Source: Ginglymostoma cirratum (Eukaryota). Taken from it: a DNA stretch of 64,000 bases. This document shows positions 4,824 through 58,000 of this stretch, piece by piece; the stretch's first letter is position 1; the number at the start of each line of letters is the position of its first letter. Position numbers and translations under genes: made by a program. The notes below the pieces were generated by a model. That model saw only the letters and a program-made list of their open reading frames with translations. It was not told the DNA's origin and did no database searches. The DNA lies in NCBI GenBank assembly GCA_024137785.1, contig JAHRHZ010000268.1, positions 14,026,698-14,090,697 of the forward strand, written 5' to 3'.

Positions 4824-6624
4824 AGAGATAGTAGGAACTGCAGATGCTGCAGAATCTGAGATAACAAGGTGTGGAGCTGGATGAACACAGCAGGGCAAGC
4901 AGCATCATAGGAGCAGGAAAGCTTGACGTTTCGGGCCTCGACCCTTCATCAGAAATGGGGGAGGGGAAGGGGGTTCTGAAATAAATAGGGAGAGAGGGGG
5001 AGGCGGAGAGAAGATGGATAGAGGAGAAGATAGGTGGAGAGGAGACAGACAGGTCAAAGAGGCGGGGATGGAGCCAGTAAAGGTGAGTGTAGGTGGGGAG
5101 GTAGGGAGGAGATAGGTCAGTCCAGGGAGGACGGGCAGGTCAAGGGGGCGGGATGAGGTTATTAGGTAGGAGATGGGGGTGGGGCTTGAGGTGGGAGGAG
5201 GGAATAGGCGGGAGGAAGGACAGGTTAGGGAGGCAGGGAGGAGCTGGGCTGGTTTTGGGATGCGGTTGGGGGAGGGGAGATTTTGAAGCTTGTGAAGTCC
5301 ACATTGATACCACTGGGCTGCAGGGTTCCCAAGAGGAATATGAGTTGCTGTTCCTGCAACCTTTGGGTAGCATCGTTGTGGCACTGCAGGAGACCCAGGA
5401 TGGACATGTCATCTGTGGAATGGGAGGGGGATTTGAAATGGTTCGCGGCTGGGAGATGCAGTTGTTTAGTGAGAACCGAGCGTAGGTATTCTGCAAAGCG
5501 GTCCCCAAGCCTCCGCTTGGTTTCCCCGATGTAGAGGAGGCCACAACGGGAACACACAGGGAACAGCAGATGCAGTATACCACATTGGCAGATGCACAGG
5601 TGAACATCTGATTGACGTAGAAAGTCTTCTTGGGGCCTGGGATTGGGGTGAGGGAGGAGGTGTGGGGGCAGGTATAGCACTTCCTGCGGTTGCAGGGAAA
5701 AGTGCCGGGTGTGGTGAAGCTGGAGGGGAGTGTGGAGCGGACAAGGGAGTCACGGAGAGAGTGGTCCCTCCGGAAGGCAGATAAGGGTGGGGAGGGAAAA
5801 ATGTCTTTGGTGGTGGGGTTGGATTGCAGATGGCAGAAATGTCGGAGGATGATGCGTTGGATCCGAATGTTGGTGGGGTGGTACGTGAGGATGAGTGGGA
5901 TTCTATTTTGGTTTTTATTGTAGGGAGTGGGTGTGAAGGATGAGTTGCGGGAAATGCGGGATACACGGTCAAGGGTGTTCTCGACCACGGGGGAGGGGGT
6001 TACGCTCGGTTTGCAATAAACAACTGCACCTCCCAGCCGCGAACCATTTCAACTCCCCCTCCCATTCCGCAGTCAACATGTCCATCCTGGGCCTCCTGCA
6101 GCGCCACAACGATGCTACCTGAAGGTTACAGGAACAGCAACTCATATTCCGCTTGGGAACCCTGCAGCCCAATGGTATCAATGTGGACTTCACAAGCTTC
6201 AAAATCTCCCCTCCCCCACCGCATCCCAAAACCAGCCCAGCTCGTCCCCACCTCCCTAACCTGTCCTCCCTCCCACCTATACCCTCCTCCCACCTCCAGC
6301 CCCACCCCCATCTCCTACCTACTAACCTCATCCCGCCTCCTTGACCTGCCCGTCCTCCCTGGACTGGCCTATCTCCTCCCTACCTCCCCACTGACACTCA
6401 CCTTTACTGGCTCCATCCCTGCCTCTTTGACCTGTCTGTCTCCTCTCCACCTATCTTCTCCTCTATCCATCTTCTCTCCGCCTCCCCCTCTCTCCCTATT
6501 AATTTCAGAACCCCCTTCCCCTCCCCCATTTCTGATGAAGGGTCTACGCCTGAAACGTCAGCTTTCCTGCTCCTATGATGCTGCTTGGCCTGCTGTGTTC
6601 ATCCAGCTCTACACCTTTTTATCT
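4824..6624. mobile_element. Penelope-like element (Neptune-type), two 5'-truncated arms head-to-head
   Basis: Minus arm 4824-~5995 has Cys-rich linker PCNRRKCYTC and GIY-YIG motif YIGETKRRLGDRFAE; plus arm ~6000-6624 is the inverted 3' end; 13-bp TSD aggataaaatctc at 4811-4823 and 6625-6637. Confidence 0.92.
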
Positions 6625-6829
6625 AGGATAAAATCTCTGCCTCCTTTATAAGAGGACCTGAAATATTTTAGTTGGCCCATCATCAGGGGTTGATGCCAAG
6701 TCCTTCAGTCAGCTTTGAGACCTGCTAGCCAACAGGCAGGAACTCTCCTTCAGGTCCATCAGATAGGCTGTCTGACGGCAATTAGGCTGTGGTCATCGAA
6801 TCTCCAATCTGAGTAGGTATGTCTCATCA

Positions 6830-7070
6830 TAATGTAACAATGCAATGCAATAATAGCCAGATGACTTGTTTTCAGGTGTTGGTATAAATATTGGTAGGAC
6901 ACAGAGGAAAACTCCTGGCTCTTCCTCAAATGATGCCACATCCATTTGAGAGGGCCAGCAGGGCAAGAGTTTAATGCATTATTCATAGCATCTCTAACAA
7001 TGCAGTCACTCTCCGTGACTGATGTGATATTCTGCACTATGAACAAAGAGACATTGGAGTGCAGGTTCAT
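6830..7070 (-). mobile_element. Deu-domain SINE-like relic
   Basis: ggacacagaggaaaactcctggctcttcctcaaa...gagagggc resembles remembered DeuSINE (SacSINE1/AmnSINE1) core. Confidence 0.45.
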
Positions 7071-7074
7071 TGTT

Positions 7075-7764
7075 CTTTGAAAGCAGAGTCGCAGGTAGAC
7101 AGCGTACTGTAAAGGGCATTTGGTACACTTTCTTTCATTGGTCAGTGCATTGAGTGTAGTAGTTGGGAGATCATGTTGTGGCTGTACAGGACATTAGTTA
7201 GGCCACTTTTGGAATACTGTGTTCAATTCTGGTCTCCCTGCTTTCAGAAGGTGTCGTGAAACTTGAAAGGGTTCAGAAAAGATTTACAAGGATGTTGCCA
7301 GGGTTAGAGGGTTTGAGCTATAGAGAGAGGCTGAACAGGTTGGGACTATTTTCTCCACAACATTGTAGGTTGAGGAGTGACCTTATAGAAGTTTGTAAAA
7401 TTGTGAGACGCATGGAATAGGGCAGATGGCCAAGGTCTTTTTCTCAGGATAGCAGAGTCTAAAACTAATGGGCACAGATTTAAGTTGGGAGGGGAAAGAT
7501 TTAAGAGGGACCTAAGGGGCAACTTTTTCACACAGAGGCTGGTGTGTGTATGGAATAAGCTGCCAGAGGAGGTGTAGGAGTCTGGTACAATTACAATATT
7601 TAATAGGCATCTGGATGGGTATATGAATGGGAAGGGTTTAGAGGGGTATGAGCCAAATGCTGGCAAAAGGGACTAGATTAATGTAGAATATCTGGTCGGC
7701 ATGGATGAGTTGGATGAAGGGTTTGTTTCCATGCTGTACATCTCTATGACTGTATGACTCTATG
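7075..7764 (+). mobile_element. CR1 (HER1-like) LINE 3' end
   Basis: LVRPLLEYCVQFW..LERVQKRFTRMLPG region; ends in ctatgact-type short repeat tail. Confidence 0.88.
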
Positions 7765-14352: not shown

Positions 14353-15301
14353 AGATAACAAGGTGTAGAGCTGGATGAACACAGCAGACCAAGCAGCACC
14401 ATAGGAGCAGGAAAGCTTGACGTTTCGGGCCTGAACCCTTCATCAGAAATGGGGGAGGGGAAGAGGGTTCTGAAATAAATAGGGAGGGGGGGAGGCGGAT
14501 GAAGATGGATAGAGGAGAGGATAGGTGGAGAGGAGACAGACAAGTCAAAGAGGCGGGGACAGAGCCAGTAAAGGTGAGTGTAGGTGGGGAGGTAGGGAGG
14601 AGATAGGTCAGTCCAGGGAGGACGAACAGGTCAAGGAGGCAGGATGAGGTTAGGTAGGAAATGGGGGAGCGGCTTGAGGTGGGAGGAGGGGTTAGGTGGG
14701 AGGAAGGACAGGTTAGGGAGGCGGGGACGAGCTGGGCTGGTTTTGGGATGCGGTTGGGGGAGGGGAGATTTTGAAGCTTGTGAAATCCACATTGATACCA
14801 TTGGGCTGCAGGGTTCCCAAGCTGAATATGAGTTGCTGTTCCTGCAGCCTTCGGGTGGCACCGTTGTGGCACTGCATGAGGCCCAAGATGGACATGTCAT
14901 CTGAGGAATGGGAGGGGGAGTTGAAATGGTTCACGACTGGGAGGTGCAGTTGTTTGTTGCGAACCGAGCGCAGGTGTTCTCCAAAGCGGTCCCCAAGCCT
15001 CCGCTTGGTTTCCCCAATGTAGAGGAGGCCACAATGGATACAGCGGATGCAGTATACCTCATTAGCAGATGTGCAGGTGAACATCTGCTTGATGTGGAAA
15101 TTCTTCTTGGAGCCTGGGATGGAGGGGAGGGAGGAGGTGTGGGGCAAGGTGTGGCACTTCCTGCTGTTGCAGGGAAAAGTGCCGGGTGTGGTGGGGCTGG
15201 AGGGGAGTGTGGAGTGGACAAGGCTCCCATCTGGACAAGTGGTCCCTCCGGAAAGTAGATAAGGGTGGGAAGGGAAAAATGTCTTTGGTGGTGGGGTCGG
15301 A
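14353..15301 (-). mobile_element. Penelope-like element (Neptune-type), 5'-truncated GIY-YIG end
   Basis: ORF 14713-15318: FPCNSRKC..VYCIRCIHCGLLYIGETKRRLGDRFGEHLRSV; same 3' end as the 4824 copy; possible TSD ttgcattg. Confidence 0.9.
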
Positions 15302-15465: not shown

Positions 15466-15681
15466 TAGATAACACAGTGTGGAGCTGGAGGAACACAGCA
15501 GGCCAGGCAGCATCAAAGGAGCAGGAAAGTTGACATTTCATGTCAGGACCCCTCTTCAGAAATCTGAAGAAGGGTCCCAAACCAAAACATCAACTTTCCT
15601 CCTCCTCTGATGCTGTCTGGCCTGCTTTGTTCCTCCAGCTCCACACTGTGTTACCTCTGATTCCAGCATCGACAGTTCAAG
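15466..15681. mobile_element. Short palindromic PLE-derived element
   Basis: About 90-bp inverted arms related to the Neptune-type 3' end; TSD ctcagccta at 15457-15465 and 15682-15690. Confidence 0.85.
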
Positions 15682-15935: not shown

Positions 15936-17298
15936 TTTGAGGTTGGTTGGCTCGCCAAGCTGGTTTGTTGTTCCGCAGACATTTCATTACCGTGCTTGGT
16001 AACATCCTCAGTGCAGCATCTGATGAAGCGTCGGTGTGTTTTCCCGCCTGGTTTTTAAACTCTGGGGTCCGTTGCGATGGATTGCCTCACTTCCGGGTTT
16101 CCACCGTAATGGAATGTATATGGGGTCAAGTTCAATGTGTTTATTAATAGCATGCTTCGTGGAGTGCCATGCTTCCAAGAATTCTCGTGCTTGTCTCTGC
16201 CTAGCCTGTCCCAGGATCTTCGTGTTGCCCCAGTCGAAGTGGTGGTTCTCCTTGTCCATGTGGATTGAGATGAGTGAGTATTGGTCGTGTCTTTTTGTAG
16301 CCAGTTGGTGTTCATGTACTCTTGTTGTTAGTTTCCTTCCTGTTTGTCCGAAGTAGCGTTTTTCTCGCAGTCTCTGTAGGGGATCTTGTAGATGACATTA
16401 GTCCTGTCCATGGCGGGGAGTGGGTCTTTAGTTCGGGTGAGCACTTGTCGTAGGATTGATGTGGGCTTGTGTGCCACTCTGATGCCCAGCGGTCGTAGAA
16501 GTCTTGTGGTGAGTTCTGACGTGTTCCTAATGTAGGGTAGTGTGATGAGTGTGTCGGGGCGTGTAGAATCTTTCTGATGCTCTTCCTGTAGGCATCTCCT
16601 GACCCAGTTCTTTGGATATCCATTATCTTTGAACACTTGGAAGTGGTATTCCTCCTCCTCTTGGCGCAGTTCCATGTTGCTGCAGTGTGCTGTTGCCCTT
16701 TTAAATAGTGTTCGCACGCAGCTTTGTTCGTGTGTGCTGGGATGGTTGCTATTGAAGTTCAATACCTGGTCTGTGTGTGTGGCTTTTCGGTGTACTTTCG
16801 TTTGCAGTTCCCGTTTGTCTTGCGCTCTACCATGACGTCCAGGAATGGGAGTTGTTTGTTCTTCTCCTCCTTTCTGGTGAATTTTGTTCCGGTGAGGGTG
16901 TTGTTTATGAGTTTGTGTGTCTCTTCTAATTTGGTCCGTTTAATGATGACAAAGGTGTCGTCTATGTAGCGCATCCATAGTTTAGGTTGGATTTGCGGAA
17001 GGGCAGTCCTTTCCAGTCTTTGCATCACTGCTTCTGCTATGAGTCCGGAGATAGACGATCCCATGGAACACATTGAACTCGACCCAATATACATTCCACT
17101 ATGGAGGAAACCCGGAAGTGAAGCAATCCATTGCAATGGACCCCAGAGTTTAAAAACCAGGCGGGAAAACACACCGACGCTTCATCAGATGCTGCACTGA
17201 GGATGTTACCAAGCACAGTAACAAAACGTCTGTGGAACAACAGACCAGCTCAGCGAGCCAACCAACCTCAACACCCACACCTACAGATCTACTCCAAA
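15936..17298 (-). mobile_element. Penelope-like element (Penelope/Poseidon-type), RT plus GIY-YIG fragments, inverted termini
   Basis: MGSSISGLIAEAVMQRLE..RYIDDTF (RT), NFNSNHP, NVIYKIP; frameshifted; about 200-bp inverted copy at 17070-17271; TSD actaaataat at 15926-15935 and 17299-17308. Confidence 0.92.
17194..17233 (+). ncRNA. Minimal hammerhead-like motif, Poseidon-type family (mutated)
   Basis: Consensus with mirror copy 15975-16014 (-): GCA-CTGAGGA-t-GTTACC-aagcac-GGTAAC-GAAAC-GTC-TGC. Confidence 0.65.
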
Positions 17299-18549: not shown

Positions 18550-18765
18550 CACAACAAAAACAAAGTTGCTGGAGAAGCTCAGCAGGTCTGGCATCAGTGA
18601 AGGGAAAAACAGAGTTAACGTTCTGAGTTCCCAGTTCTGAGGGTCACCGGACCCGAAATGTTAACTCTGTTTTTCCCTTCACAGATGCTGCCAGACCTGC
18701 TGAGCTTCTCCAGCAACTTTGCTTTTGTTCTTGATTTATAGCATCTGCAGTTCTTTCGGTTTTTA
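18550..18765. mobile_element. Short palindromic PLE-derived element, family B
   Basis: About 70-bp inverted arms (gctcagcaggtctggca / tgccagacctgctgagc); TSD tttggtatt(c/t)ctat at 18536-18549 and 18766-18779. Confidence 0.85.
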
Positions 18766-19114: not shown

Positions 19115-19329
19115 GATAAAAAAAGAACTGCGGATGCTGGAAATCTGAAATATAAAAACAGAAATTGCTACAAAATCTCAGCAGGTCTGGCAGCATCTGT
19201 GGAAAGAAATCAGAGTTAACGTTTCAAAGTTCTGAAGGAGGATTATTGGACCTGAAATGTTAACTTTGATTTCTGTCCACAGATGCTGCCAGACTTGCTG
19301 AGATTTTTCAACAATTTCTGTTTTTGTAA
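19115..19329. mobile_element. Short palindromic PLE-derived element, family B
   Basis: Inverted arms; TSD ctacagtc at 19107-19114 and 19330-19337. Confidence 0.82.
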
Positions 19330-20119: not shown

Positions 20120-20944
20120 TACACCTGCCCCCACACCTCCTCCCTCACCCCAATCCCAGGCCCCAAAAAGACTTTCCACATCAGGCAGAGGTTCACCTGC
20201 ACATCTGCCAATGTGGTATACTGCATCCGCTGCACCCGTTGTGGCTTCCTCTACATCGGGGAAACCAAGCGGAGGCTTGGGGACCGCTTTGCAGAACACC
20301 TGCGCTCAGTTCGCAACAAACAACTGCACCTCCCAGTCGCGAACCATTTCAACTCCCCTTCCCATTCCTCAGATGACATGTCCATCCTTGGCCTCCTACA
20401 ATGCCACAGTGATGCCACCCGAAGGCTGCAGGAACAGCAAATCATATTCAGCCTGGGAACCCTGCAGCCTAATGGCATCAATGTGGATTTCACAAGCTTC
20501 AAAATCTCCCCTCCCCCAACCGCATCCCAAAACCAGCCCGGCTCATCTCCACCTCCCTAACCTGTTTTTCCTCTCACCCCAAGCCACACCCCCATCTCCT
20601 ATCTACTAACATCATCCCGCCCCCTTGACCTGTCCGTCCTCCCTGGACTGACCCATCTCCTCCCTACCCCCCTACCTACACTCACCTTTACTGGCTCCAT
20701 CCCCGCCTCTTCGACTTGTCTGCCTCCTCTCCACCTATCCTCTGCTCTATCCATCCTCTATCCGCCTCCCCCTCTCTCCCTATTTATTTCAGAACCCTCT
20801 TCCCCTCCCCCATTTCTGATGAAGGGTTTAGGCCCGAAACGTCAAGTTTTCCTGCTCCTATGATGCTGCTTGACCTGCTGTGTTCATCCAGCCCCATGCT
20901 TGTTATCTCGGATTCTCCAGCATCTGCAGTACCTTTTATCTCTA
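20120..20944 (+). mobile_element. Penelope-like element (Neptune-type), 5'-truncated
   Basis: ORF 20213-20560 VYCIRCTRCGFLYIGETKRRLGDRFAEHLRSV; TSD-like accttgac at 20112-20119 and 20945-20952. Confidence 0.9.
20813..20846 (+). ncRNA. Minimal type I hammerhead ribozyme-like motif, Neptune-type family
   Basis: CTGATGA-a-GGGT-ttag-GCCC-GAAAC-GTC; equivalents at 6532-6559 (+), 4925-4952 (-), 14419-14446 (-), 39281-39308 (+). Confidence 0.7.
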
Positions 20945-21339: not shown

Positions 21340-21443
21340 CAACAACAACAAAAACAAAGTGGCCGGTAAAGCTCAGCAGGTCTGGCAGCATCTGTGGAGG
21401 AGAAAACAGAGTTAACGTTTCGGGTCCAGTGACCCTTCCTCAG
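21340..21443 (-). mobile_element. Single-arm family B element with intact hammerhead-like core
   Basis: Minus strand reads gttCTGAGGAagggtcactggacccGAAACGTTaac; TSD aacagacat at 21331-21339 and 21444-21452. Confidence 0.8.
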
Positions 21444-21774
21444 AACAGACATACCTTGCTCACTCAGTCAGGAAAATACAGGGAAAGAAGGGTAAAGCAG
21501 GGGTTCTGTGAGAATCCAGGAATGCACAAAAAGAATAAGTGCTGAGAGAGCTAGCAAGCAGCTCTGAAATGCAAGCTGGTCCAGTCTGTGAGCTGGACAC
21601 CTGTCCCTGCCCGCCAAGTGTCCCACCCACAGTATTGCAATATTAGATGCTGGTGTACTCAAAAGTGCAGCATGGCAGTGCAGAACAGCGTGTGAGTGGA
21701 TTAGAGATGTGCCATAAGGGTATGGAAAGGCTGGCTCATATTGGACGTCAACATACATGGACGTCGGGTCTCAA

Positions 21775-22107
21775 AAGGGGCGCTGCGTCCGCAGGTCCTC
21801 CTACTGGAGAAGGGTGTGTGTGCTGAGGTCCTCCTACGGCAGGAGGCGTTGTATCCGCAGGTCCGCCGACTGGAGGGGGCGGTGTGCTGGTGTCCTCCTA
21901 CCACTGGGGGCGCTGTGGGCCGAGGGACGGGGTGCGCTATGTGTTCAGGGCCTCCTACCGCGGGGGGCGCTGTGGCCTGAGGGCCTCCTAGCGGAGAGCG
22001 GTGTTGTGGGCTGGGGTCTTCCGAGCCGACACGGGCGTTGAGCGCTGAGATCCTCCTAACCGGAGGGGGCGCTCCGTTCGGAGGTCCGTCTAGGGGAGAG
22101 GGGCGCT
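21775..22107 (+). repeat. Degenerate GC-rich tandem repeat, unit about 33 bp, about 10 copies
   Basis: GGGGCGCTGTG...AGGTCCTCCTAC variants recur at 31-34 nt spacing. Confidence 0.75.
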
Positions 22108-22242
22108 TCGTCTGATTGGAGCCGCCTCTCTCGCGAGCTTTGCGGAAATCCCGTGTTTCGTGGCTGAGGTGGAAGCTCCACGTCAGAGGAGTCATCAGTC
22201 CGGCCGGGCCTGGGTGTGAGCGCCGGCTGAGGTGCTGCAGCG

Positions 22243-22245
22243 ATG
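22243..22245 (+). CDS. COPB2: COPB2 exon 1 (coding part is ATG only)
   Basis: gcagcgATG|gtgggt in the CpG island; exon 2 begins phase 0 with Pro2. Confidence 0.85.
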
Positions 22246-25200
22246 GTGGGTACATGGTTGTTGACAGGGACTAGCAATGGCTGGCTGGCTGGCTGGCTGG
22301 CGGGCGGGTAGGGAGCCCGAGCCTAACTGTGGGTGCGGGAGGTCGTGGCTGCTGGAAGTCTCCTCCCTGTTATATCAATCACAAAGGGCCCGGCCCCACA
22401 GGCCCTAAGTACAGCCGCAGAGGGTCCCCGGTTTGGGAAGGCCATCTGTATGTACATGTTGCTGATACAAGGGCCAAGCTCTGAAGCAGTGAGAGGAAGG
22501 TGTAGGCTGGAAGGAACTGCATCTGTCCGGCCTCTTGTTCTGCAGTTAAACCCAAATACTGCGGAGGCTGGGATCTGAAGTTAAAAAAAAACACTGGAAA
22601 CAATCAGCAAGTCTGCTAGGATCTGAGGAGAGAAATCAGAACTCCTTTCATTATTGTTCACCGTTGTCAGGCTCGTGCTGTGAACAGGGTCGTCTGGGGT
22701 TAGTAAGTAAATTGTGTTTTAATTTAGGCATGTTTGTATCCTATTAGATATTTAAGTCTTTATAACTTCTAATCATTGAGTCCACAGCTAGTGAGAGCTG
22801 AATTCCTGTGTAGATATATAGTTGAAGGTTTGAGGCTGTTGTAACGCAGAAATGAGGTCGAAGTGTACCTTAATAAACAGTAGCATTAAGAAAATGAGTC
22901 GTCTGGAACACAGTCTGTTTCTCTCCCAAAGTTGCTGCTATACCTAATGAGTTTCTTCATTTTTAGGCTGGATTAACCCTCTCATCTGTCCTGCCTTCTG
23001 TAGAATTGCAAGCTGTGGAGGAATAGACTGATTTGAACATGACTGTTGTTTACCTAAAAACTCATTAATGACTTTTGATGTGAGATCAAAGTAGACAGTT
23101 ATTCGGACCACCACTCATTTCTGCTTCCACGTCAAAAGTTGTGATGAGTTGTGCACTTAAAAAAAATTTTGCAAATTGTGAATTCCTGCAATGAAAAACC
23201 TGCATGAGATGTAAGAGAGGATTTAAGTTAGGTGATGCTTGCTGCCATCTGATCAGTGGGAGCAGATGTGGGCCATTGGGCCCATCAAGTTTGCTCTGCC
23301 ATTAAATGAAATGGCTGATCTGATAATCTGTATGGTATACAAAAACAGAATTAGCTGGAGAAACTCAGTGTGTCTAGCAGCATCTGTCGAGAGAAAGTGG
23401 TGTCAATGTTTTGGGTCTGGCGACCCTTCTTTAAAACAGATTTTAGCTAGGAAAAGGTTGGTATATGCATTGAAGATAGGACTCGATTTTGAGACCTGAA
23501 GGCTACAGAGTGTCCAAACAGAAAATGAGATGTTGTTCTTCCACCTTTGCTGAGATTTGCTGGTGCAAGACTGCAGGCTCAACTCTGAAATGTCGATCTG
23601 GGAACACAGCGTGACATGAAGCTTGGAGTCATTTTTAAAGTCTGAACATCTTCCACGTCCGACACCACCAACCCCACTCCCTGCCCCTACATACCAGGCT
23701 GTGCCATCACATGGGCAGCTTTCACCACAGCCAACCCGTCTTCAGGCACTAATGGTCCCCATTAGCAGCTTTTCTTTTCTCATAAAACTGAGACTTGTAG
23801 AATTGTGACAGTATGGAAACAGGCCATTCAGTGCATTAAGTCCACTCTGACCCTCCAACAAGCATCCCATTCAGAACCCCTCCCCAGTCCCTTTAACCCT
23901 GCATTTACCATGTCTAATCCAGCTAGCCCGCACATCCCTGGATATTTTGGACAATTTAGCGTGGCCGATCCACCTAATCTGCACATCTTTTGACTGGGGA
24001 GAACACTGGAGCACCCAGAGGAAACCCACACAGACACGGGGAGAATGTGCAAACTCCGCACACATTCTCCTGATGCAAGAATTGAACCTGGGACTCTGGC
24101 ACTGTGAGGCAGCAGTACTCCCCATTGAGCCACCATGCCACCCCTTGGCTCGCCCTCATCCATTCTGTTGTCTGCTCCAATGCTGTTCTTCTCTCTGGTC
24201 TCCATCTCCAGCTACAGTTTACTTTGTTGCCTGTCAAATTGTAGAGCATTCTTGGGAAATGATTGCTGTGTGTTTCTGCATCATTCCCTCTGGAGTCCTA
24301 AAGACATGTCATTCATATTCTCATTCACATGCTGCCTGTGACACCATTATTCAAGATTTCTCCATTGTGCTGTCAGACTGTTTATCTGACATGTAGTCTT
24401 AGGAGTTGCAATTTCTATTAATTAGACATGAGGAATATCAAATCTCTTGACGTTGATTCTTGTCAAAAACTCTTTGACATTGACTCGGCCCCCTTCACTG
24501 ACTACTATCAAATAGTGAACTGGAGTGTTAAAGTTATGATCCAAGTTGATTGTTAAACTTGCAAGATGTTTTTAATTTTAGTGACTATGGCATGATCAAG
24601 TTCCATATATATATATCTCACATTTTTCTTTCAGAATGTATGTAGGTAATTGGAAGTAGTTAATTAGAAATTCATATGCCGTAGGATTGGATGGATTAAT
24701 GATGGATTTAAACCATTGTTAGTAAAAATACTGTTTTTGCTGAAATGTTTATTTTGTTTTTCCCTCTCTTGAATGTAATGACTTGCTCCATATGGCTCGA
24801 TAGAAGGTAATGTCCCTTTGCTATCATGTGTGAGTGGCTCATTGTGTATGAATGTGCACAGGGAACGTGATCAGCTGCTGTAATGTTAAATTTTATGAAC
24901 TTATCTGGTAATAGTCTGCCATGACAATTCTGTATAAAGAAAGGAATTTTGTTTACAAATTTATGGACCTTTCATGACCACAAATTATTCAAATGTAGTT
25001 AATAGGTTAATACATCTTTAACAGAGTCCCACAAAGACTTGACTTGAAGCATTTAACAGTGATGGAATCAATGTCCCATATTTTATGATCAGTCAGCCTC
25101 ACATAACTCAGTTGTTACTGTGAAACAAATCCAGTGGACTTTATCCTTAATTTGATCCAATTAGAGAATTTACTTCATTTTGAGGAGCCTGTTTGTTAAC

Positions 25201-28200: not shown

Positions 28201-31200
28201 TTTTCAGTCTAAAATATGGAAACAAGTAATGCTGTGCTAGAATGTTGTACTTGGTTCAAAAATGTATTTTATTTTGTAAAGATCTGATGTTGAGCAAAGT
28301 ATGTTGGTACACTTCAGGTGTGGCAGCTTGGGTCATCCTCACCTAATTTCACCTTGGAGGGCCATGAAAAAGGAGTGAACTGCATTGACTACTACAGTGG
28401 TGGTGATAAGCCCTATCTGATTTCTGGAGCTGACGATCGCCTAGTTAAAATCTGGGATTACCAGGTACGGATAATTTATGACATTAAGTAATTGTTCGTG
28501 CATGTTTAGTAATTATGTAAGAATATTTAATGGTGTATTGGATTTTATTTAATAATAAAAGTTGATTCTGCAAAATGATGTAACATAAACATTGCTTCCA
28601 TAATGATCAAATTATACAAAAGTGTTGGCTATATTCTTCATTGTGATTAAAAGGCAAAACTTCAAGCCATTATGGGTCAACAACTGACAAAAGCATAGAT
28701 GCAGCAGCAAAATGATCAATATTTCCACCAGGGTAAAATCAGCTGATCATCTAATTTATATAAAATCATTGCCAATACTTGCAAAAATTAGTGAAGCTGA
28801 ACATATTGCTGTGTGCAGTGATTATTCCATTGCCAAACGGAAGGCAATGGCCTGGTGGTCTTATCGCTGGACCGTTAATCCAGAGGCCCAGGTATTGTTT
28901 TGGTGACCCGGGTTTGAATCCTACTATGGCAGATGGAATTTGAATTCAGTAAGTATCTAGATTTAAGGGTCTAATGGGACCCATAAAACTATTGCCAGTT
29001 ATTGTAAAAACCTATGGGTTCACTGATCTCCTTTAGGGAAGGAATCTGCCATCCTTACCTCATCCGGTCTATATGTAACTCCAAACCCACAGAAAGATGG
29101 TTACTCTTAACTGCCCTCTGGGCAATTAGGGATGGGCAAGAAATGCTGGCCCAGCCAGTTACACTGTCATCCAGTAAATTAATAAAAAAATTCAACCTAA
29201 TGACTAATCCAACTTTTTATTTCTAAATTATTTAATAAGTATTAATGTTATAAGTGAAATAATGCTGCTTTGCTTGTAGAATAAGACTTGTGTTCAGACA
29301 CTGGAGGGCCATGCTCAGAATGTCTCTTGTGTTAGCTTCCATCCTGAACTTCCAATTATCATCACTGGATCAGAGGATGGTGAGTATTGCATGTTTCAGT
29401 AATTGCTATTAATGCTTATTAAAAGTGCAAGTTTGATTTTTAAAATATATAAAATCGAAGAAAACCAACCAGTAACTTTTGTAGAATAAAATTAACTGTT
29501 AGTTTCTTGTCTGCTAACTTGTTCCACAACTTGTATATTTTGGGCAAAAAGACACTTCTTTCTTAAAACTTCATAATGGTTAACTTGTGGCCACTGATAT
29601 TTAAATAATTAATGATAACGAATTATGTGCTTTTAAAATTGAAGAGAAGCTTTCAAATGAATATAGAAAATTCCAAATAACTATGCTAGAGAATTGATAA
29701 TTGCAGCTTTTTCATGTAGTTTCTTTGTGACGTGGTCATTTTTGATTGACATGGAGTGGAGCTGTCTGTAGCTTAGTGAAGGTGTAAAATAGATAATGAA
29801 GAAATTGTTTAGTATTAATTGTTACCAAAAAGAGACCAGAAATTGAAGCTTTTCATCTTGCACTTGTCAGGACAAGGATGCAAAAAACAGACTTGAAGAA
29901 AGGGACATTTGTTTATGCAGTATGTCCTTTTTCTCAAGCCTGTTTTCTTATGACCTAGTCCTGATAAAGTACAAAACAAAAAGCTTTGATTTCTTGTCTC
30001 CTTTTAGTAATGTTTGAGTTCTGTGCTCCCAGGAAAAGATTAGTATTAATCAGGAAGCTGTTTTGTGGAAAATGACTTGTAGTTGTGATGACCCATGCAG
30101 TGTTCTCAAAAGCTTACTATTTTGCATTGGCCTGATGTTGAGAAACGAATGATCTGAAAGTATCTCTTTTCTTTGCATCGTAAAGGGCAGGCTTTAAAAG
30201 CAGATTGGATTGAACTTGAGTAGAATTGCTGATTGTATCTTCACAATGCTCTGCATTTCTTTGTATGTTACTTTTATTTGAAAGGTTAATTAAAATGTCT
30301 CAAAAATTTGTCCATTTTCCACATTACTACAAGGAAGGGTTTTGAAATTCATTGCTTACCAACACACTCATTATTTATAGCTGGTTTAAAGAAAGTTGTA
30401 ATGGAAAACAATAGATGTGATCAAGAGTAAAAGGAAATGATTTTTTAAGTTATGTCTGGTCTTGATGAAGCAGCATTTGGTGTATTGTATTCAGTTTTTT
30501 TTTTGCCTTCACCGGAAAATGTAAAATTAGTGGAAGGATTTTAGCGAAGATTTGTAGCTCGGGTTGTGGGTGACGTTGTTGATTCGCTCGCCGAGCTAGC
30601 TAGTTTTCGTTCAGACATTTTGTCACCACACTAGGTAGCTTCATCGGTGAGGCTTCCGATGAAGCAATGTTGTTCTACTCCACTAGGAATTTATACTGTC
30701 TGGCCTGTTATGGTGACTAGTGTCATTTCCAGTTTTGTTCTGTATAGGTTTGTATATGGGGTCCAATTCTCTATGCTTGTTGATTGCATTATGGGTTGAG
30801 AACCATGCCTGTTGGAATTCCCGTGTGTATCTATATTTGGCTTGGGCTACTGTGGTTGCATTGTCCTAGTTAAACTGATGGGCTTCATTGTCTGAGTATA
30901 CTGATTTTAAGGAAAGTTTGTCATGTCGTTTTGCCGCTAGCTGATGCTCGTGTATTCTAATGGCTAGTTTCCATCCTGTCTGTCCAGTGTAATGTTTGTG
31001 GCAGTCGTTGCATGGTATTTTGTAAACCATGTTGGTTCTGCATGTTGTGGGAACAGGGTTTTTAATACGTGAGCGTTTGTTGTAGAATGGCTGTGGGTTT
31101 GTGAGCTACCATGATTCCTAGTGGTCGTAGGAGTCTTGTTGCCAGTTCTGGTATGTTTCTTGATGCGGGGCAATGTGGCCAGTGTGTTAAGGTGTATTGT

Positions 31201-37200: not shown

Positions 37201-40200
37201 ATTAATGAACTATTATTTGTTGTAGTCAGAAAAGCCAGGTAGCTTGTGCACATGGTTAGAACTTGCAGTAAGGAACTAACATATCTGATTGAACTTTCAA
37301 AAAATGTAGTGCTAAATTAAGAGAAGTGACTTAAACCTCCAGAAGTAAGATCAATTTTACTATGAAGTAACTTTTAAATATCTTGGAGCGGAATGCAATT
37401 TAGTATGATGAATGCAGCCTCTGTTGAATTCAGCACAGTGTAGAGCTGGAGGAACACAGCTAGTCAGGCAGCAGCAGAAGAGGAGCAAAGTCAACATTTC
37501 TGGTCGGGACCCTTCTTCAGAACTGGTGGATGGGGGCTGGGAAATAAATTGAGGGAGGAGGGGTGGTGCTGTGGGAAGGTAGGTAGGATGGCGACAGGTG
37601 GATGCGGGTAGTGGGGATTGGTCAGTGGGCAGATAGATGAGAGGGAAGATGGAGAAGTTGTGTCAGATCAAGGAGGTGAGAGGGAGGATGGGTGGGGCTG
37701 GGGAAAGGTAGGTGGAGTGGTGATAGGTGAATGCAGGTAGGGGTAGAGGGGATTATTCAGTGTGAAGGGAGGGGCAGATAGGTCAAGGAGGCAGGGATGA
37801 AAGTGGGGGTTGGGAGTGGAATGAGGCCGGGGATTGGCAGATTTTAAAACGGGTGAATCCTATGTTCAGACCATTGGGCTGTAGCCTCCCAAGGCAGAAT
37901 ATGAGGTGTTGCTCCTCCAGTTTGCGGGTGGCGTTATTGTGGCACTGGAGGAAGCCCATCATGAACATGTCATCAAGGGAGTGGGATGGGGAGTTAAAAT
38001 GATTAGCGACTGGAAGGTGTTGTCGATTATCGGTACAGTTTGCGCTTGGTCTCACTGATGTAGAGGAGGCCACATCAGGAGCAGTGGATGCAGGTAGACC
38101 AAGTTGGAGGATGTACAGGTGAACCCTTGTTGGATATGAAAGGTTTGCTTTGGGCCTTGAATGAAGGTGAGGGGTTGGGGAGGCGTAGGGGCAGGTGTAG
38201 CACTTCCTGCAGTTGCAAGGATAGGTGCCGGGTGTTAGTGGGGAGTGTGGAGCGGTTGAGGGAGTCGTGGAGTGAGTGGGTTCTATGAAAGACAGATAGA
38301 GATGGGGAAGGAAATATCTCTGGTTGTGGGGTCAGATTGTAGGTGGCAGAAGTGGCAGAGGATGATGCGCTGGTGCAGAGGTTGGTGGGGTGGTAGGTAG
38401 GACCAGGGGGAATCCTGTCTTTATTTCTGTTGGGTGGAGGGGATGTGAGGGCAGAAGTGCAGGAAATGGATGAGATGTGGGTAAGGGGATTTTTGATCAC
38501 CGGAGGGGGGATGTTGCAGTCCTTGAAATAGGAGGACATCTGGGATGGTCGGGAGTGGAACGCCCCATCTTAGGAGCAGGCGTGGCAGAGCCGGAGGAAC
38601 TGGGACTGAGGGATCGCATTCTTGAAGGAGGGTGGATGAGAGGAGCTGTAGTCCAGGTAGCTATGGGAGTCGGTGTGTTTGAAATAGATGTCATTGTTGA
38701 GGTGGTTACCAGGTCCAGAAAGGGGAGGGAAATATCTGAGACAGAGTCAAGGTAAGCGGAGATGAGTTCAGTGGGGCAGGAGCAGGCAGAGACAGTGGGT
38801 TGGCTGGGGCAGTCAGGTTTGTGGATTTTAGGAAGGAGATAGAACTGGATGGTGCGGGGTTGGGAACGATGAGGTTGGAGGTTCTGGGTGGGATGTCACC
38901 TGAGATTGTGCGGTTATGGATGGTTTGGTGATCAGGGGTGGGGTCATACTCGAGGGGGCGGTAGGAGGAGGTGTCAGAGAGTTGGTGCCTGGCCTCCGCG
39001 ATGTTGAGGTCAGTGCATCCTTACCACTACTGTGTCCCCGTTATCCGCAGGTTTGATGGTGAGGTCAAGGTTGGGGTGGAGGGCTGCCTGTTCCGATGGG
39101 GAGAGGGCTGGAGACATTGAGGTGATTGATGTCGTGACGGCAGTTGGAGATAGAGGATGAGCGAGGGTAGAGGGTGGGGGATGTGGGTCCACCCATCACT
39201 TCTCACCTACCTTCCCCCAGCCCCACCCCTCCTCCCTCTATCTATTTCCTAGCCCTCTTCCCCTTCCCCACTCCCCATTTCTGAAGAAGAGTCCCGACCC
39301 GAAACGTTGACTTTCCTGCTCCTCTGATGCTATGTTCTTCCAGCTCCTTACTGTTGACTCCGACTCCCGTATCTGCAGTTCTTGGTATCTTCGAGCCTCT
39401 GTTAAAATTTGCTTCGTAAATTATTCCAGACTGAATAGAAATAGAGGAAATTGCAATTGGTATCAAGGGAGTAGGAAATAAAAATGATCTGAGTTGTAGT
39501 CATACGGCATGAAAGTAGACCCTTCAGTCCAACTAGCCTACACCAATCATGTTCCCAGACTAAACTAGTTCCATTCACCTGCATTTGCACCATATTCCTC
39601 CAAATCTTTCCTATTTATGTACTTATCCAGATGTCTTTTAAATGTTGTAACTGTACCTGCATCTACCACTTTCTCTGGCAGTTCATTCCACACATGAACA
39701 ATTCTCTGTAAAAATGTTGGCCCTCATGTCCTTTTTAAAACTTTCTCCTCTCACCGTAAAAATATGGCCCCTAGTTTTGAACTCCCCCCACCCTAGGGAA
39801 AAAACCCTTTTCATTCACCCTATCTATATCCCTCATGATTTTATAAACCTCTATAAGGTCACCCCTCAGCCTCCTACATTGCAGTGAAGAGAGTCCCAGC
39901 CTATCCAGCCGATTTTTATAACACAAACCCTCCATTCCAAGCAACATCTTGGTAAATCTTTTCTGAACTGTCTCTAGTTTAATAATATTCTTCCTACAGC
40001 AGAGTAACCAGCACTGCACAAAGTACTTCAGAAGAATTCTCACCAACATCCTGTACAACCTCAACATGACATCCCAACTCCAATACTCAAAAGGTCTCAG
40101 CAATGAAGGCAAGCATGCTAAATGCCTTCTTAACCACGCTGTCTACCTGTGACGCAAATTTCAAAGAACTACGTACTTGAACCCTTAGGCTTCTCTGTTC

Positions 40201-46200: not shown

Positions 46201-49200
46201 GTTACAAGGGCTACATAATAGATGGTGGTATGGTGCAATTAAAACTACTGGAAGTGAAAGCACAGGAAAAATGAGCAACATTTGGGAGCCTGGAATAGAA
46301 AAAAAAAGTTAATATTAAGAATACAGACTATTCTGTCAGATGTTTTCTGATGGGGTTTGTCACCCCAAGCAGGTTTCAAATATGTAGTTTACTCATTCCA
46401 TTTAATCCTGCAGTTGATATTAAGTCTGTGAACCTGTACATCATTTTCTGAAAATAGGTATAAATTGTATTTCAATTCAATTTAAAAAGATTGTTTTGTT
46501 TTCTTCAAAAAAATTTATTTTCATCCCCACAGTCAGAACAGAAGTGGAAGCAGTTGGCAGAGCTTGCGATCAGTAAGTGCCAGTTTACCCTTGCTCAGGA
46601 GTGTTTACACCATGCACAAGATTATGGTGGACTGTTGTTGCTGGCTACTGCCTCAGGCAATGCTCCAATGGTTAACAAATTAGCAGAAGTTGTCGAAAAA
46701 GATGGCAAGAACAATGTGGCCTTTATGACTTATTTCATGCAAGGAAAGTAAGTACTACACCTTTCAATCTTTACTTTTAACTTCTTTGACAGATTTGCTA
46801 AATTTCAATCACTTGACACTGCTGAATACAATTCATTTCTATAAACAATGAATTGTGTTTTTTTACCATTTTGTTTTCAGATTTTCAGCTTATGATTATA
46901 ATAGTAATTTGAATACAATTTGAAGAGCCTGGACATGTCCACTTAAGGAAATTGTCTTTTTCAATACACCCTCTGGAAAATTTAAAAATATCTCAATTAC
47001 GTTACCCTAAACATTCTATAGTCAAATAATCTTAACCAGATTTATGCAACCTGTCTCTTTAATTTTATTTCTTAAGCTCTTGTTGAGTGAATCATCATTC
47101 CCGTTCAGGTCCTGTATATTCTTCCTATATTTGTTCCTGCTATTTGGTGCCTAAATTGAATCTAATATATTATGTAGAATATACAGCAAAGAAAGAGACC
47201 ATTTCCCCGAGGTTTAAACATTGATGTACACAACAACACCACCCCTGAAACAAAATCCATCCAGAGTTGTGAATTCAATAAGCGTATTTGGCTATTCTGT
47301 TAAGCTTGCAATTACTTTATCTTTTAAAATTATTTCATGTAGGCTTGACAATTGTTTGGAATTGCTGATAAAAACAGGACGTCTCCCGGAAGCTGCCTTT
47401 TTTTCTAGAACCTACTTGCCAAGTCAGGTTTCTAGGTATGAGTCTACAGTTTCAATTCCATCATAGCACAGTGCAATCTTGCATGTTTACATACAAAAAT
47501 ACATGTGCATAATAATTTGCATTCTGACGCTAACTTTTCCTTTCAGGGTTGTGAAACTCTGGAGAGAGAATCTTGCCAAAATAAACCAAAAAGCTGCAGA
47601 ATCTCTTGCTGACCCCACAGAATATGAAAACCTATTCCCAGGTCTAAAAGAAGCTTTTGTAGCTGAGCAGTACCTGAAAGAAACCAGCAAGACTAAAGAG
47701 AGACCCGCCAGGGATTACCCTCTTGTCACTGTAAGTTATAGCATCCTTTTATTTTATAAAAATGTTGAGAATTTGGATTAAAATAGAATTTGCCAGTGCT
47801 AATCTTGTTCCTGCTATTTTTGCTCACTAGCCAAATGAAGAAAGGAATGTTATTGAAGAGTCAAAAGACTTCACACCATCTCATCATGGAGCATCGGTTG
47901 AGGTAGCTGATTATTATAAAACGCATCCTTTCTTCAGAAATTTAAAAAAAAGTATTGGAAAAATTCAGATCTGGCAATGTCAAAGTTAACCGAGTTGAGT
48001 CCAACATGACTTCAATGTTAGAGAGTTGTATTGGATTCACTGTGAATGTTGTTTCTGTCTCCAGATACTGGCCAGACCTGCTGGATTTTTCTGACACTAT
48101 TTTTATTTCAGATCTCCACCATCCACAATAACTTGCTTTTGTTCCTTGATTTCTGAGTTGGAAAGTTAGTGTTGAAGTCAAAGCCCTCCACAACCATGGA
48201 CACATCTTTACTATTAATCTATTGAAAATGTTTCAAGCTGGAGTTAGAAACAGTTCATAAATCAAGAATTTGCATGTCTCAGTTGAGGAAGGAGCTCTGC
48301 TGGCAGCATCTTAGTCCTGCAATATTAAAAATTCAAACAAGGATTTTTTTTAAATGACTGATTCCCTGGACCAATATAACAAAAAAAAACTTTGATATAA
48401 TTAGAAGATTTCAACAATTTATGTTTTGTCATTTTAGAATTCTAAAGATGAACAGGAAACAGTGTCAAGTGTGTCTACACCAAATGCATCAATGATAGCA
48501 GACGCAAAACCTGTATTAGAATCAGACCCTGCTTATGTGGTGACTACAGCTGTGCCACGAGGAATGGACATTGAAACTAAAAAGGTATTTCAACTTGAGC
48601 AAGATAAGAAAACTCATTTAAGCAAATCCATGTTTGTAAAGATCAATATCGACTAAAGCTGTAAAGATGAACTCCATTGACTGGCCACTCCTTACTGAGG
48701 TAAAAATGGAGTATCTGCATTTACTGAAAAGGAAACCATTTATCTTTTTTGAGATAAAAGAAAGGAACATTATAAAGTAAAACCAAATTGATAACGGATT
48801 AAAAACCGAAAGAACTGCGGATGCTGTAAATCAGGGACAAAAACAAAGTTACTGCAAAAGCGCAGCAGATCTGGCAGCATCTGTGAACGGAAAAAACAGA
48901 GTTAACATTTCAGGTCTGATGACCCGTCCTCAGAACATTAATGGATTAGGTAGCTTGGGACCAAGATGGTGCATCCTGAATTTTTCGGAAAAAAATGGTA
49001 AACAGAATGGCACGTGATAAACCACTAAATAAATTGGTCCTCCACTAGATACGGAGGCATGTTGTGGGTTGGATAAATAATTGATTGCATTCTTGTAGAC
49101 TCAAAATAGATATTAATGGTAATGGAAAATAGTTAATCATGGAGCCCAGAAATAGATGTTTTTCACCATCATTAATAGTGGTGTATATAGACTACTTGGT

Positions 49201-51880: not shown

Positions 51881-52000
51881 TTAATTTCCTTCTTCGTTCC
51901 GACATGGATCTTGATTAGCAGAGCTGTTGAGCGTGTCCTGGTAAGCTTGCAAAGCTAATTCAATGTAGCCTCCTTTTTGGGAATCGGTATGGGAAAATAT
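51881..52000 (-). CDS. MRPS22: MRPS22 terminal coding exon
   Basis: ttctag|[39 protein letters not shown]. Confidence 0.93.
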   Translation of the reverse strand: MFSHTDSQKGGYIELALQAYQDTLNSSANQDPCRNEEGN

Positions 52001-55000: not shown

Positions 55001-58000
55001 GGTTGTTGTGTGATTTGCCCTGCTCCACCAGTATGTTGTCAAAAGTTAGGCATTAAAACAGACCGGGAACATCTGTTTACAGAGCCATTAAACTCACCAA
55101 AAAGTAGGTTGGGTCTTGTTCATTCACATTTAAGTGAATTTTTAATGCGGTTATTAAATTTTAGTTGGCATCAAACAAGTTCTCCATATTTGTAAGGTTA
55201 TTTTTTAAGAGAATTTTATCATTGATCAACTTTTTGCCACTCTTTTCTTTCATTATATTGATCGCTGCATGTAAAATTATATTGAATTAAATATTCTAAT
55301 TTGCATTTCCTGGCTCAGGCTCCTCCTGCGCCTCAGAAAGGATTCTTCAATTGGCTAACGACATGTTGATGCTTGTGCTGTTCACTTAGGACCCAGATAA
55401 CAGGAAAACGCAGGCTACATAACTATTTCCACTGAATTAAGGCCAGACTGTTCAAGAGAGAGATGTGAGGCAACACTTCTACACACAAAGGGTAGCAGAG
55501 GTTTGGAACTCTCTTCCACAATTGGCAGTGCAAGCAGCATCAGTTGTTAATTTTATAACTGAGATAATACCTTTTGCTTAACAAAAATGTATCTAAGGGA
55601 TACGGGCCAAAGGCAGATATATGGAATTAGGTCACAGATCCGCCACGATCTCATGGAATGGTGGAACAGGCTTAAGGGGCCGAATGGCCTGTTTCTAATT
55701 TTGTATTTCCCCCCTACTTTATAGAGTCAGAGTTTTTACAGCACGGAAAGAAGGCCTTCGGCCCATCGTGTCCATGCTGGTCATCAAATTTCCATCTATT
55801 CCAATCCCATTATTCCAGCTCTTGTTCCATAGCCTTGTGTGTGATGGTGTTTCAAGTGTTCATGTAAGTAGTTACTAAATACCTGGACAGTTCCCAACTC
55901 CACAACTCTTTCAGGCAGTGCGATCTTACTGTGCATACTGGCAGCCACTTGGGACTTGAAAAAGTCCTTCACAAGCCCAACACTCTGGAAATTGTGAAGC
56001 AAAAGCCCGTGAAGAGTCAAAGGGTAGTTGTTAGTCTAGTAAATGCTCGTGCTGTAGTTCATTGTTGAGCTCACAATCTAGCCCAGTTTTTTTTGGGGGG
56101 GTCGGTTAGCTGAGTTGGCTGGATGGTTGGTTTGCAATGCAGAATGATGCCAATGGGTGTGGGTTCAGTTACCGCTGAGGTTCCCAGGAAGAACATTCCT
56201 CCTTCACCTCTCCACTCGTCTGAAGTGTGGCAACCCTCAGGTTAAACCACCACCAGTCTCTTCCTTCCCTCTCACTCATTAGAAAGAGCAGCCCTATAAC
56301 CCAGTAGGACTACGACAATTTTGTCTTTTTATATTAGTGATTCCTTCGACAAAGACTATGGTCTAATCTTCATTTCAAGAGGTATATTTCTCCCACTAGA
56401 TGGTGTCAGAATCAAGTCACCCGACACCAGCTTATTGTCCTACAGGTTTATTTGAAATCACAAGCTTTCGTAAATGCTGCCCCTTTGTCAGGTGAAGTCA
56501 CCTGACGAAGGGGCAGTGCTTTGAAAACTTGTGCTTTCAACTAAACCTGTAGGACAATAACCTGGTGCTGTTGATTTACGACTTTTGTCATTCCTAGTCC
56601 AACATCGGCACCCCCACATCCTGACCACTAGATGGTGCCATTGCTTTAAAATCACTGCATGATAAGACTCCTTTAGTCGGGGTAATAAGTGATAATTCAT
56701 TACCAAAAAAAAATGTTGCTGCACTTTAGTTTCACTAGCCCACATCTATGTATTTTGGCTATGGATTTTGATAAAGGCAAGATATCTGTTTCTTGTCCTC
56801 AATCCCTGTGTAGAGTTTGGATATGAATGACGTTGAAACAGCCTGTAAACACTTGAAAATAAAGTTATGTGTGGGGTATCAGAACTAGGAACAGACTTTT
56901 AAATTCTTTTCCAAGAACATTATGATGTCACACAGTGACTGAATTTATGCATTTCAATTGATGCGCCAACCCTCAAGTGCCTTGTACAATGCATTAGCTT
57001 TGATTTAATCACATATAATTCATTTGTTAAAAGTTAATTAACAAAATTGCTAAACCTACCATTTGCTTAAAATTTTATCAATCTCCATTCATGACAGTTG
57101 AACGCAAAATTTAAATGGATCAACGCTATGTCACAGTAACAGTAACACAAGCAATCAGTAAGTCTCTGCGAAGGGTGGTATGCATTATTGTATAGACAAG
57201 GCCATAAGTTGTATAATTTAAGGAGAAACTGATAGAATCACAGGTAGCTGGGCTGCCAGATTTCCAATTTTCTGCCAAAATTTCCAAGAGGGTTTGTGGG
57301 ATTCAAGATCTCTTTGTTACGAGAATTAATCATTCATACCATTAGACAAAATATTAGAAGTTCTGACATGGGGGGGTGGCAAAGGTGGTGGGAGATGCTA
57401 ACCATTGAGTCAATTAACTTTCAACCAATGATTACATCTGATTAAATTACTGAATTTAGGCATGGTATGAGTGGATTAAATTGATGCATTTCATCCCCAC
57501 ATTTCTATCATCATCGTAGTAGTTGTAATGTTCTGGGAACAGTACTTAAAACCATGTCCCCAGTATGATACATTAGGGAGATCTTGGGTTTGTCTTTTCA
57601 CGGGCAATATGATGCATACCATGGAAATCTGTGTGCCACGTGTAAAGTTTACATCAATGTTTTAATATTTCTGTATCTTGAGCTGTTTACACTGAACTTC
57701 TCTGCCGAATTCATCCATTAATAATTACTGAAAGAATCCAAAACAGCCTCATTTAAATTCCCCAGCTTAGAATATTCAAACGAGGCAATCCTCCAGAAAA
57801 AAAATCTTCAGTTAGCAAAACTTGTGCACCTGATCATGTTAGGGCTTGTAGCATGTGTTTGGGTCTAAAATTACAGTTTGAATACTTGCTCTGAACTGTG
57901 GGAAGGGAAAGCTAAGTTTTTATAAATTGAAGCTTCACAAAAGTAATTTCAAGCATTCTATGTAAATCTGATGATAGAAATTTTAACTACTTCAGTTTGT

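Follow-up and report, generated by a model that had tools for sequence, protein, structure and literature searches.

The analysed DNA was a 64,000-nucleotide stretch of the Ginglymostoma cirratum genome (assembly GCA_024137785.1, contig JAHRHZ010000268.1, positions 14,026,698 to 14,090,697), which is called the window below. Profile searches revealed 28 arms of Penelope-like elements (PLEs) in it, which we have assigned to subfamilies A1 (4 arms), A2 (4), B (14), P1 (2), P2 (2) and C (2). A scorable core of a minimal hammerhead ribozyme (HHR) was joined to the tail in 20 of the 28 arms, a density of 20 cores in 64 kb; the other eight arms started inside or after the core. These motifs are real and correctly named, and are new shark members of the already known PLE minimal hammerhead. 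The coordinates are given in Table 1.

Table 1. PLE insertions and hammerhead motifs of the window. Positions count from the first base of the window; 5′ ends are in nucleotides from C3 of the core. RT, reverse transcriptase; EN, endonuclease.
Position	Strand	Feature	Evidence or remark
4826..6624		Neptune-type A1 insertion: minus arm long, with thumb, Cys linker, GIY-YIG, HHR and long tail; plus arm inverted, 5′-truncated, with short tail	15-nt target duplication at 4811 and 6625
4922..4955	−	A1 minimal HHR, complete; C3 4952, predicted cut after 4925	Descriptor and core scoring
6529..6562	+	A1 minimal HHR, decayed: C11.1>T, helix I 2 bp	Descriptor and core scoring
14353..15301	−	A1 5′-truncated single arm, GIY-YIG domain, short tail	Pfam GIY-YIG E 1.9e-5; 8-nt duplication
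14416..14449	−	A1 minimal HHR, complete; C3 14446, predicted cut after 14419	Descriptor and core scoring
15466..15681		A2 palindromic insertion: two decayed HHR and tail arms back to back (15559−, 15564+), 5′ ends −4 and −1
15939..17298		Poseidon-type P1 insertion: minus arm long, with RT, thumb and EN; short arm inverted, from 17067 (−130)	RVT_1 E 8e-6, below Pfam curated cut-off
15973..16016	−	P1 HHR, C3 16011: helix I 5 bp, helix II 6 bp; CpG changes C11.1>T, C15.2>T; EN stop and next ATG in core
17192..17235	+	P1 mirror HHR, C3 17197, G12>A
18550..18765		Family B palindromic insertion; plus arm from −3, core partly deleted
19118..19329		Family B palindromic insertion; plus arm from −3, minus arm from about +21
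20122..20944	+	A1 5′-truncated single arm, GIY-YIG domain, long tail	Pfam GIY-YIG E 4.3e-6; 94% to Rhincodon typus protein
20812..20847	+	A1 minimal HHR, complete; C3 20816, predicted cut after 20843	Descriptor and core scoring
21340..21446	−	Family B solo HHR and short tail; complete HHR 21411-21446, predicted cut after 21414	9-nt duplication abuts core
22560..22640	−	Old family B tail-only arm	Profile search
22915..22959	+	Second old family B tail-only arm	Profile search
23340..23600	−	Old family B arm: dead core 23434 joined to Neptune-type EN C-terminus 23565-23482	tblastn E 0.007; nhmmer E 5e-6
30537..31466		Poseidon-type P2 insertion; decayed cores 30647−, 31391+; short arm from 31260 (−131)
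32972..33055	−	Family B arm with 5′ end near 0; core at 33054 decayed	No target duplication found
33184..33349		Family B palindromic insertion without CUGANGA box; arms from +8 and +38
33794..33887	+	Family B arm beginning inside core
37429..39393		Neptune-type A2 insertion; decayed cores 37520−, 39281+
48049..48127	+	Old family B tail arm	Profile search
48802..48938	−	Family B solo HHR and long tail, 5′ end −4/−5, two CpG changes
56409..56624		Family C palindromic insertion; decayed cores 56491−, 56502+; AGCT-type helix III; no ORF

Identification of the hammerhead motifs

A type I minimal hammerhead descriptor, proposed in an earlier note on this DNA, was searched against the whole window. 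This gave 10 strict and 13 relaxed matches, compared to means of 0.028 and 0.12 (maximum 2 each) in 500 dinucleotide shuffles of 1-kb blocks, the matches being repeat copies and hence not statistically independent. All 10 strict matches had the CUGANGA and GAAA boxes around helix II, the closing of helix I and U16.1-H17. An unpaired base between A9 and G10.1, a published hallmark of the motif, gave the best register in 11 of the 13 relaxed matches. C11.1 of the G10.1-C11.1 pair was retained in 12 of the 20 arms, and seven of its eight losses were C>T changes at a CpG. The palindrome 15.2-16.2, which has no loop 3, was ACGT in 7 of the 18 A, B and P arms (the remaining 11 were CpG-decayed) and AGCT in one of the two family C arms. 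Profile searches placed the motif at the same position of a PLE-type insertion in three mutually unalignable groups. In A1, A2, B, P1 and P2 it was in the pseudo-long terminal repeat (pLTR), in sense orientation to and 3′ of the open reading frame (ORF) encoding RT and GIY-YIG domains; the family C insertion had no ORF. Loose core matches at 3488, 23745, 31599, 45348 and 45878 did not fit the descriptor and were discarded.

The motif, or a decayed version of it, was present at all nine sites cited in the earlier note, and the description as a type I minimal hammerhead with a loop-less palindromic helix III was borne out. The site list was correct but incomplete, and the minus strand positions were those of H17 or the 3′-end, with C3 lying at 4952, 14446, 16011 and 21443. 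The core strings had the right boxes but omitted the unpaired base after A9. Those quoted for the Poseidon-type and family C motifs were two-copy consensuses found intact in no single copy, because each of these copies carries changes.

The motifs share the consensus CUGANGA-H-G...C-GAAA-N-N′-U-H, a helix I of 3-5 bp and the absence of loop 3 with the minimal hammerheads of metazoan PLEs (Cervera and de la Pena 2014, PMC4209133), a paper that also bears out the statement on dimers in the earlier note. In that work, as here, the motif lies in the pLTRs of Neptune and Poseidon elements (there from fishes), mostly singly or as opposite-strand pairs, with several consensus families per genome. Unlike the examples given there, the Neptune-type helix II of the window was short (4-5 bp). 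The words "shark" and "Callorhinchus" were not found in two of its supplement files (file 1 excluded).

Element families

The six subfamilies fell into three groups with no alignment between them: Neptune-type (A1, A2, B), Poseidon-type (P1, P2) and C; these clade names rest on linker, endonuclease and ORF-start features, as the window holds RT fragments only. A Pfam scan of 12 ORF pieces detected GIY-YIG in two and RVT_1 in one. On the strand of the motif and upstream of it, the A1 and A2 arms encoded a thumb, then a CX4CxxC linker and a GIY-YIG domain, which is the Neptune/Nematis layout described in PMC8557442, where Nematis also has the linker. The CX2-5CxxC linker before the C-terminal GIY-YIG was CNRRKCYTC in A1 (at 5.7 kb) and similar in A2; the corresponding region of B was not recovered. 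Family B aligned to A1 and A2 (nhmmer E to 3e-7) and one B arm continued into the C-terminus of a Neptune-type EN; B is therefore a Neptune-type relative. The claim of at least four families in the earlier note was upheld, but not its separation of B from Neptune. Its link to PLEs was supported by GIY-YIG and RT matches for the Neptune-type, B and Poseidon-type insertions, but for family C by architecture only: inverted arms, a tail on one end only, a target duplication of 13-16 nt and tails to +82 and +122.

The P1 and P2 translations had no Cys linker between thumb and EN, and their ORF start was inside the hammerhead. In all four Poseidon arms (16011−, 17197+, 30647− and 31391+) the EN stop codon was U4-G5-A6 of the core, and in three of them the next ATG began at A9, such that translation ends and starts inside the ribozyme core. 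PAc, a Poseidon element of Anolis carolinensis (Frangieh et al. 2024, PMC11167929), also starts its ORF at stem II, as P1 does. Its cut site is 26 nt after the ORF start, compared to 28 nt after the ATG at A9 in P1.

The best named homologues were carpet shark proteins. The EN at 20120-20557 shared 94% identity with a protein of Rhincodon typus and 88% with one of Stegostoma. The Poseidon-type piece was 60-63% identical to Hemiscyllium and Chiloscyllium proteins; its top score was to a cestode protein. Additionally, read-through of these hammerheads would give peptides that match the C-termini of annotated Stegostoma, Hemiscyllium and Chiloscyllium proteins. Such matches are indirect evidence that the motifs may be common to carpet sharks.

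Architecture of the insertions

Target duplications abutted the ends of 13 of the 17 insertions tested (score ≥ 7; null 27/300), and seven of the 13 scored ≥ 10 (null 1/300). Three of the 17 had no duplication and one was ambiguous; two old tail arms were outside the test. Measurement of 18 arms revealed two tail end positions per group, about 30-40 nt apart: +91-93 and +112-128 in A (+92/93 and +126/128 in A1), +97-103 and +128-131 in B, +72-75 and +101-110 in P, and +82 and +122 in C. One long and one short tail were present in each of the six two-armed insertions measured. Two discrete tail ends are likewise described for other PLEs (PMC11167929, PMC8557442), and the large inverted terminal repeats are shared with Drosophila virilis Penelope (PMC2377424, PMC4209133).

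No head-to-tail hammerhead pair was present in any insertion or among the 28 arms. In this the arms differ from non-LTR (long terminal repeat) retrozymes, PLE-derived head-to-tail tandem units with a type I hammerhead, which are reported in one chondrichthyan (bioRxiv 10.64898/2026.07.22.740005). Snap-back through helix I was rejected as the cause of the inversions, as the junctions do not abut +30. Five short palindromic insertions (15466-15681, 18550-18765, 19118-19329, 33184-33349 and 56409-56624) would give near-perfect hairpins of 60-95 bp.

Decay of the cores

All seven scored core features were retained in four of the 20 cores (4952−, 14446−, 20816+ and 21443−). Three arms were rescored after a one-base register correction, and all three lacked at least one of these features. 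Changes at the two CpGs of the core numbered 23/76, compared to 6/200 at other core positions (Fisher p 1e-9), and the catalytic G12 was lost in four of the 20 arms. This concentration of changes at CpGs, including G12, is the pattern expected of neutral methylation decay. The 31391+ core, for example, had C11.1>T and G16.2>A, and 56502+ had C11.1>T and a broken palindrome, its mirror 56491− carrying G8>A. The copies of the window are decaying relics and are likely to be inactive in the cell.

Pairing and predicted folding

Alignment of 13 Neptune/B rows showed that 88% of cells paired, and of four Poseidon rows 85%, compared to 15-52% when the strands were slid. This pairing pattern is consistent with the hammerhead structure and does not prove it. 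A covariance model built from the 13 Neptune/B rows gave 16 matches at E < 0.001, all of them Neptune/B and none Poseidon or C; change between those groups therefore cannot be counted as covariation.

The short mirror insertions were predicted to form hairpins of −100 to −142 kcal/mol with the core buried. None of the four complete copies was predicted to fold alone as a hammerhead (helix I probability 0-0.02), and in the three A1 copies helix II was lost from the prediction when 45 nt of upstream sequence were included, the upstream pyrimidine tract being predicted to break it. The dimer fold of the complete copies gained 5-10 kcal/mol over two monomers; its predicted minimum was not the catalytic fold. 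The palindrome duplex alone contributed −3.1 kcal/mol in A1 and −5.5 kcal/mol in 21443.

A 9-mer located 17 nt upstream of the Poseidon cores (16020-16028 (−), 17180-17188, 30656-30664 (−) and 31374-31382) is complementary to the CUGANGA box. The resulting anti-core hairpin had seven of nine pairs in three arms (reached by about 250/5000 shuffles) and nine of nine in 30647− (1/5000), where both strands differ together. Silencing by the hairpin, constraint from coding and templated repair are all possible explanations of the 9-mer. As a general switch the anti-core hairpin was rejected, since it is absent in A1, A2 and B and the Poseidon sequence is also coding.

5′ ends of the short arms

Nine of the 28 arms, from seven insertions of A2, B and C, had their 5′ end 0-6 nt before C3, and none had it between −7 and −75; of the remainder, eight began between +1 and +40 and 11 were longer. 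In six of the seven insertions an inversion junction or a target duplication defined the boundary. It was not fixed for 33054−, and the target duplication at 48933− was weak. With boundaries read by eye in one window, a small sample and a post hoc test, seven of 15 events at this position were reached in 11/20000 simulations under a uniform null and in 0-6/20000 under exponential nulls; a cautious count of five of 13 events was reached in 736/20000. Additionally, both short Poseidon arms (P1 and P2) started at the same codon, at −130 and −131 (chance 0.3-1.5%). The four A1 arms (−531 to −1045) and the A2 arm 39281+ (−76) did not fit a fixed end. None of the 28 arms started cleanly at the cleavage site. 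Cleavage-derived arms with 5′ ends at +30 were rejected, as there was no peak; four old tail arms lie near +22 to +38 with uncertain boundaries.

Fixed 5′ ends of short copies are not described in the parts of PMC4209133 consulted, and keyword searches of the open-access literature, a scope that excludes Lunse et al. 2017 and Arkhipova 2006, did not find the pattern. In PAc two reverse-transcription start sites likewise define the tail, both strands are cut and extended, and uncleaved RNA serves as template (PMC11167929). PAc is active and arranged in tandem and its protein-assisted ribozyme was assayed, whereas the copies here are truncated, decayed and known from sequence alone. In D. virilis Penelope, 46 nt separate the start site from a 75-nt intron, and the intron ends 4 nt short of C3 (PMC2377424, PMC4209133). 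This start, at about −125, is near the −130/−131 of the Poseidon arms; the inverted repeats of the fly element are said to vary in size, and its hammerhead has a 2-nt insertion at loop 3. A conserved 5′ intron as in D. virilis was rejected for the window, the acceptor AG being present in P1 but in neither of the P2 arms. Introns at the 5′ end are known from PLEs, and a pyrimidine tract ending in YAG, similar to a splice acceptor, precedes the core by 12-27 nt in A1, A2 and B (4952−, 37520−, 39281+ and 23434−).

We tentatively suggest that the short and inverted arms may be run-off cDNAs, which is the simplest explanation of the fixed ends but one that we do not hold firmly. On a transcript that had not been cleaved, the RT would initiate at the tail inside the 5′ pLTR, an internal site, and would stop at a family-specific RNA 5′ end, namely the first base of helix I in A2, B and C and −130 in the Poseidon elements. 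It is doubtful, though conceivable, that families B and C are instead non-autonomous short elements, resembling retrozymes or short interspersed nuclear elements (SINEs), whose own masters would explain the fixed ends without a general mechanism. Non-autonomous PLE derivatives are described in the literature, most B arms and both C arms consist of hammerhead plus tail only, and five of the 14 B arms begin at 0 to −6. However, the B arm that extends into the EN, the sharing of this boundary by A2 and C, the other fixed boundary in both Poseidon subfamilies and the lack of head-to-tail arrays argue against short masters. As further rivals, fixed 5′ ends could arise by self-priming, with an antisense strand as template (PMC3846280), or by a nuclease that trims as far as a protected fold.

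Host gene and other sequences

The window encodes the coatomer beta′ gene (COPB2) on the plus strand (22244-48584), with a CpG-rich promoter region at 21751-22500, a candidate ATG exon at 22244, and exons at about 25.3 kb and 26.4-48.6 kb. It matched coatomer beta′ in the PDB (E 4e-39) and the COPA/B TPR domain. All four complete cores are upstream of this gene and none is inside it. A strand bias relative to COPB2 was rejected (three of 10 strict matches on the plus strand, p 0.34; most lie outside the gene). COPB2 has the hairpin insertion at 33.2 kb in one of its introns, where it would provide a double-stranded RNA substrate. Another repeat family was found at 7041-7714, 39708-40200 and 61139-61612; its frame at 39771-40142 had no Pfam match and resembles the end of a CR1-type long interspersed nuclear element. 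The sequence at about 23900-24200 (−) resembles a tRNA-derived SINE. An assembly gap of 400 N is located at about 2420-2820.

Possible cleavage by the hammerheads

In our view the motifs are very probably minimal type I HHR copies from the PLE terminal repeat, carried on truncated, CpG-decaying shark insertions, whose parents would have cut their RNA weakly after GUC or GUU and only with help, and which likely no longer cut in the cell. The help would have come from the element's own protein or from pairing, via the four-base palindrome, with a second copy, the templates that were inserted would have been uncleaved RNA, and the fixed 5′ ends of the short arms would be the RNA 5′ end reached by the RT from the tail. 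This reading builds on the motif itself, its sense orientation behind GIY-YIG, the inverted arms, the target duplications, the two tail ends, the CpG decay and the whole core kept on inserted arms. Its ancestral part, cleavage with dimer or protein dependence, draws on other species: the parent motifs are taken as help-dependent ribozymes because of published PLE hammerhead assays. Animal PLE hammerheads were uncut as monomers and cleaved at low levels as dimers or trimers (PMC4209133). The anole hammerhead was cut only with PLE protein, C3/G8 mutants abolished cleavage and a double mutant partly rescued it, insertion in vitro was unaffected by ribozyme mutants, and RNA-seq ends were absent at the cut site (PMC11167929). 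Present-day cleavage is unlikely because the insertions lack head-to-tail pairs and many copies would be tied up by an inverted partner.

Several results weigh against this reading. Four copies keep every scored feature, and three of these have no inverted partner in their own insertion, so that they might act in trans. Two-sided changes were found in one pair in Neptune/B, which 487/500 column shuffles reached, and in two pairs in Poseidon (U-A/G-C in helix I, U-A/C-G in helix II), which 461/500 reached; the compensatory change of helices I and II between families claimed in the earlier note was thus not above shuffled columns. The expected CpG consensus behind the 23/76 changes was derived from the copies themselves, and the nearest-neighbour folding models neither the hammerhead core and tertiary structure nor protein help. 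No RT or GIY-YIG was found for family C at 56.4-56.6 kb (tblastn, eight window ORF pieces), an insertion too short for one. The hammerhead families of Rfam have the same catalytic boxes as the motifs here. Their models gave zero matches in the window, whether at gathering score or with E allowed up to 10, probably because helix III and the loop contacts are absent. The top Rfam matches, MIR533 and mir-3202, were below gathering score, reflect only the palindromic insertions and were rejected.

It seems unlikely that the motif was kept in the parents mainly as a structural or coding signal (a protein-binding fold, a marker of the RNA 5′ end, or the overlapping stop and start codons), with cleavage incidental. 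In favour of such a signal, the core is joined to the tail in 20 of the 28 arms and no arm starts cleanly at the cut site, and the P1/P2 EN frame stops at U4-G5-A6 with an ATG at A9 in three of four arms; the insertion in vitro of ribozyme mutants (PMC11167929) and the success of Naiad elements without a hammerhead (PMC8557442) point the same way. However, it is the catalytic bases, and not the stems alone, that are common to the three unalignable groups here and across phyla (PMC4209133), and the anole C3/G8 mutants and their partial rescue (PMC11167929) also argue for cleavage.

It is very unlikely that ribozyme activity persists in some genomic copies, with the four complete ones cutting read-through RNA as trans or long-range dimers. 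The best candidate would be 21443−, about 300 nt upstream of the CpG-rich COPB2 promoter region and on the opposite strand; the completeness of four of the 20 cores, the predicted dimer gain and the presence of other same-strand copies within 1-2 kb would suit such activity. Those neighbouring copies are decayed, however, and the noncatalytic predicted dimer minimum, the small palindrome duplex energy, the helix I probability near zero and the disruption of A1 helix II by its pyrimidine tract all speak against it, as do the inactive monomers of PMC4209133 and the missing anole RNA-seq ends of PMC11167929. The suggestion in the earlier note that some copies may still self-cleave has little support, given four complete cores in 20, their lack of head-to-tail partners and their predicted folds. 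Chance matches in repeat-rich DNA, for which the shortness of the motif, the lack of any Rfam match and unremarkable folding z-scores (−0.95 to +0.26) might be cited, have a negligible probability and are refuted by the shuffle null, the recurrence of the motif at one place in three unalignable groups, the target duplications and the paired tail ends.

Implications for PLE biology

The PLE minimal hammerhead, known from bony fishes, coelacanth, frog and reptiles, is extended here to shark. Its function is still an open question (PMC8557442), and the pile-up of 5′ ends makes part of that question testable by computation. If genome-wide data showed short copies ending at one fixed base ahead of the core instead of at the cut site, insertion of PLEs would use uncleaved RNA in vivo and the inverted pLTR would have a simple origin. 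Should the short arms be run-off cDNAs, solo hammerheads would be in vivo products of internal initiation, genomes would record the RNA start of each family, and the hammerhead would act as an RNA 5′-terminal fold more than as a cutter.

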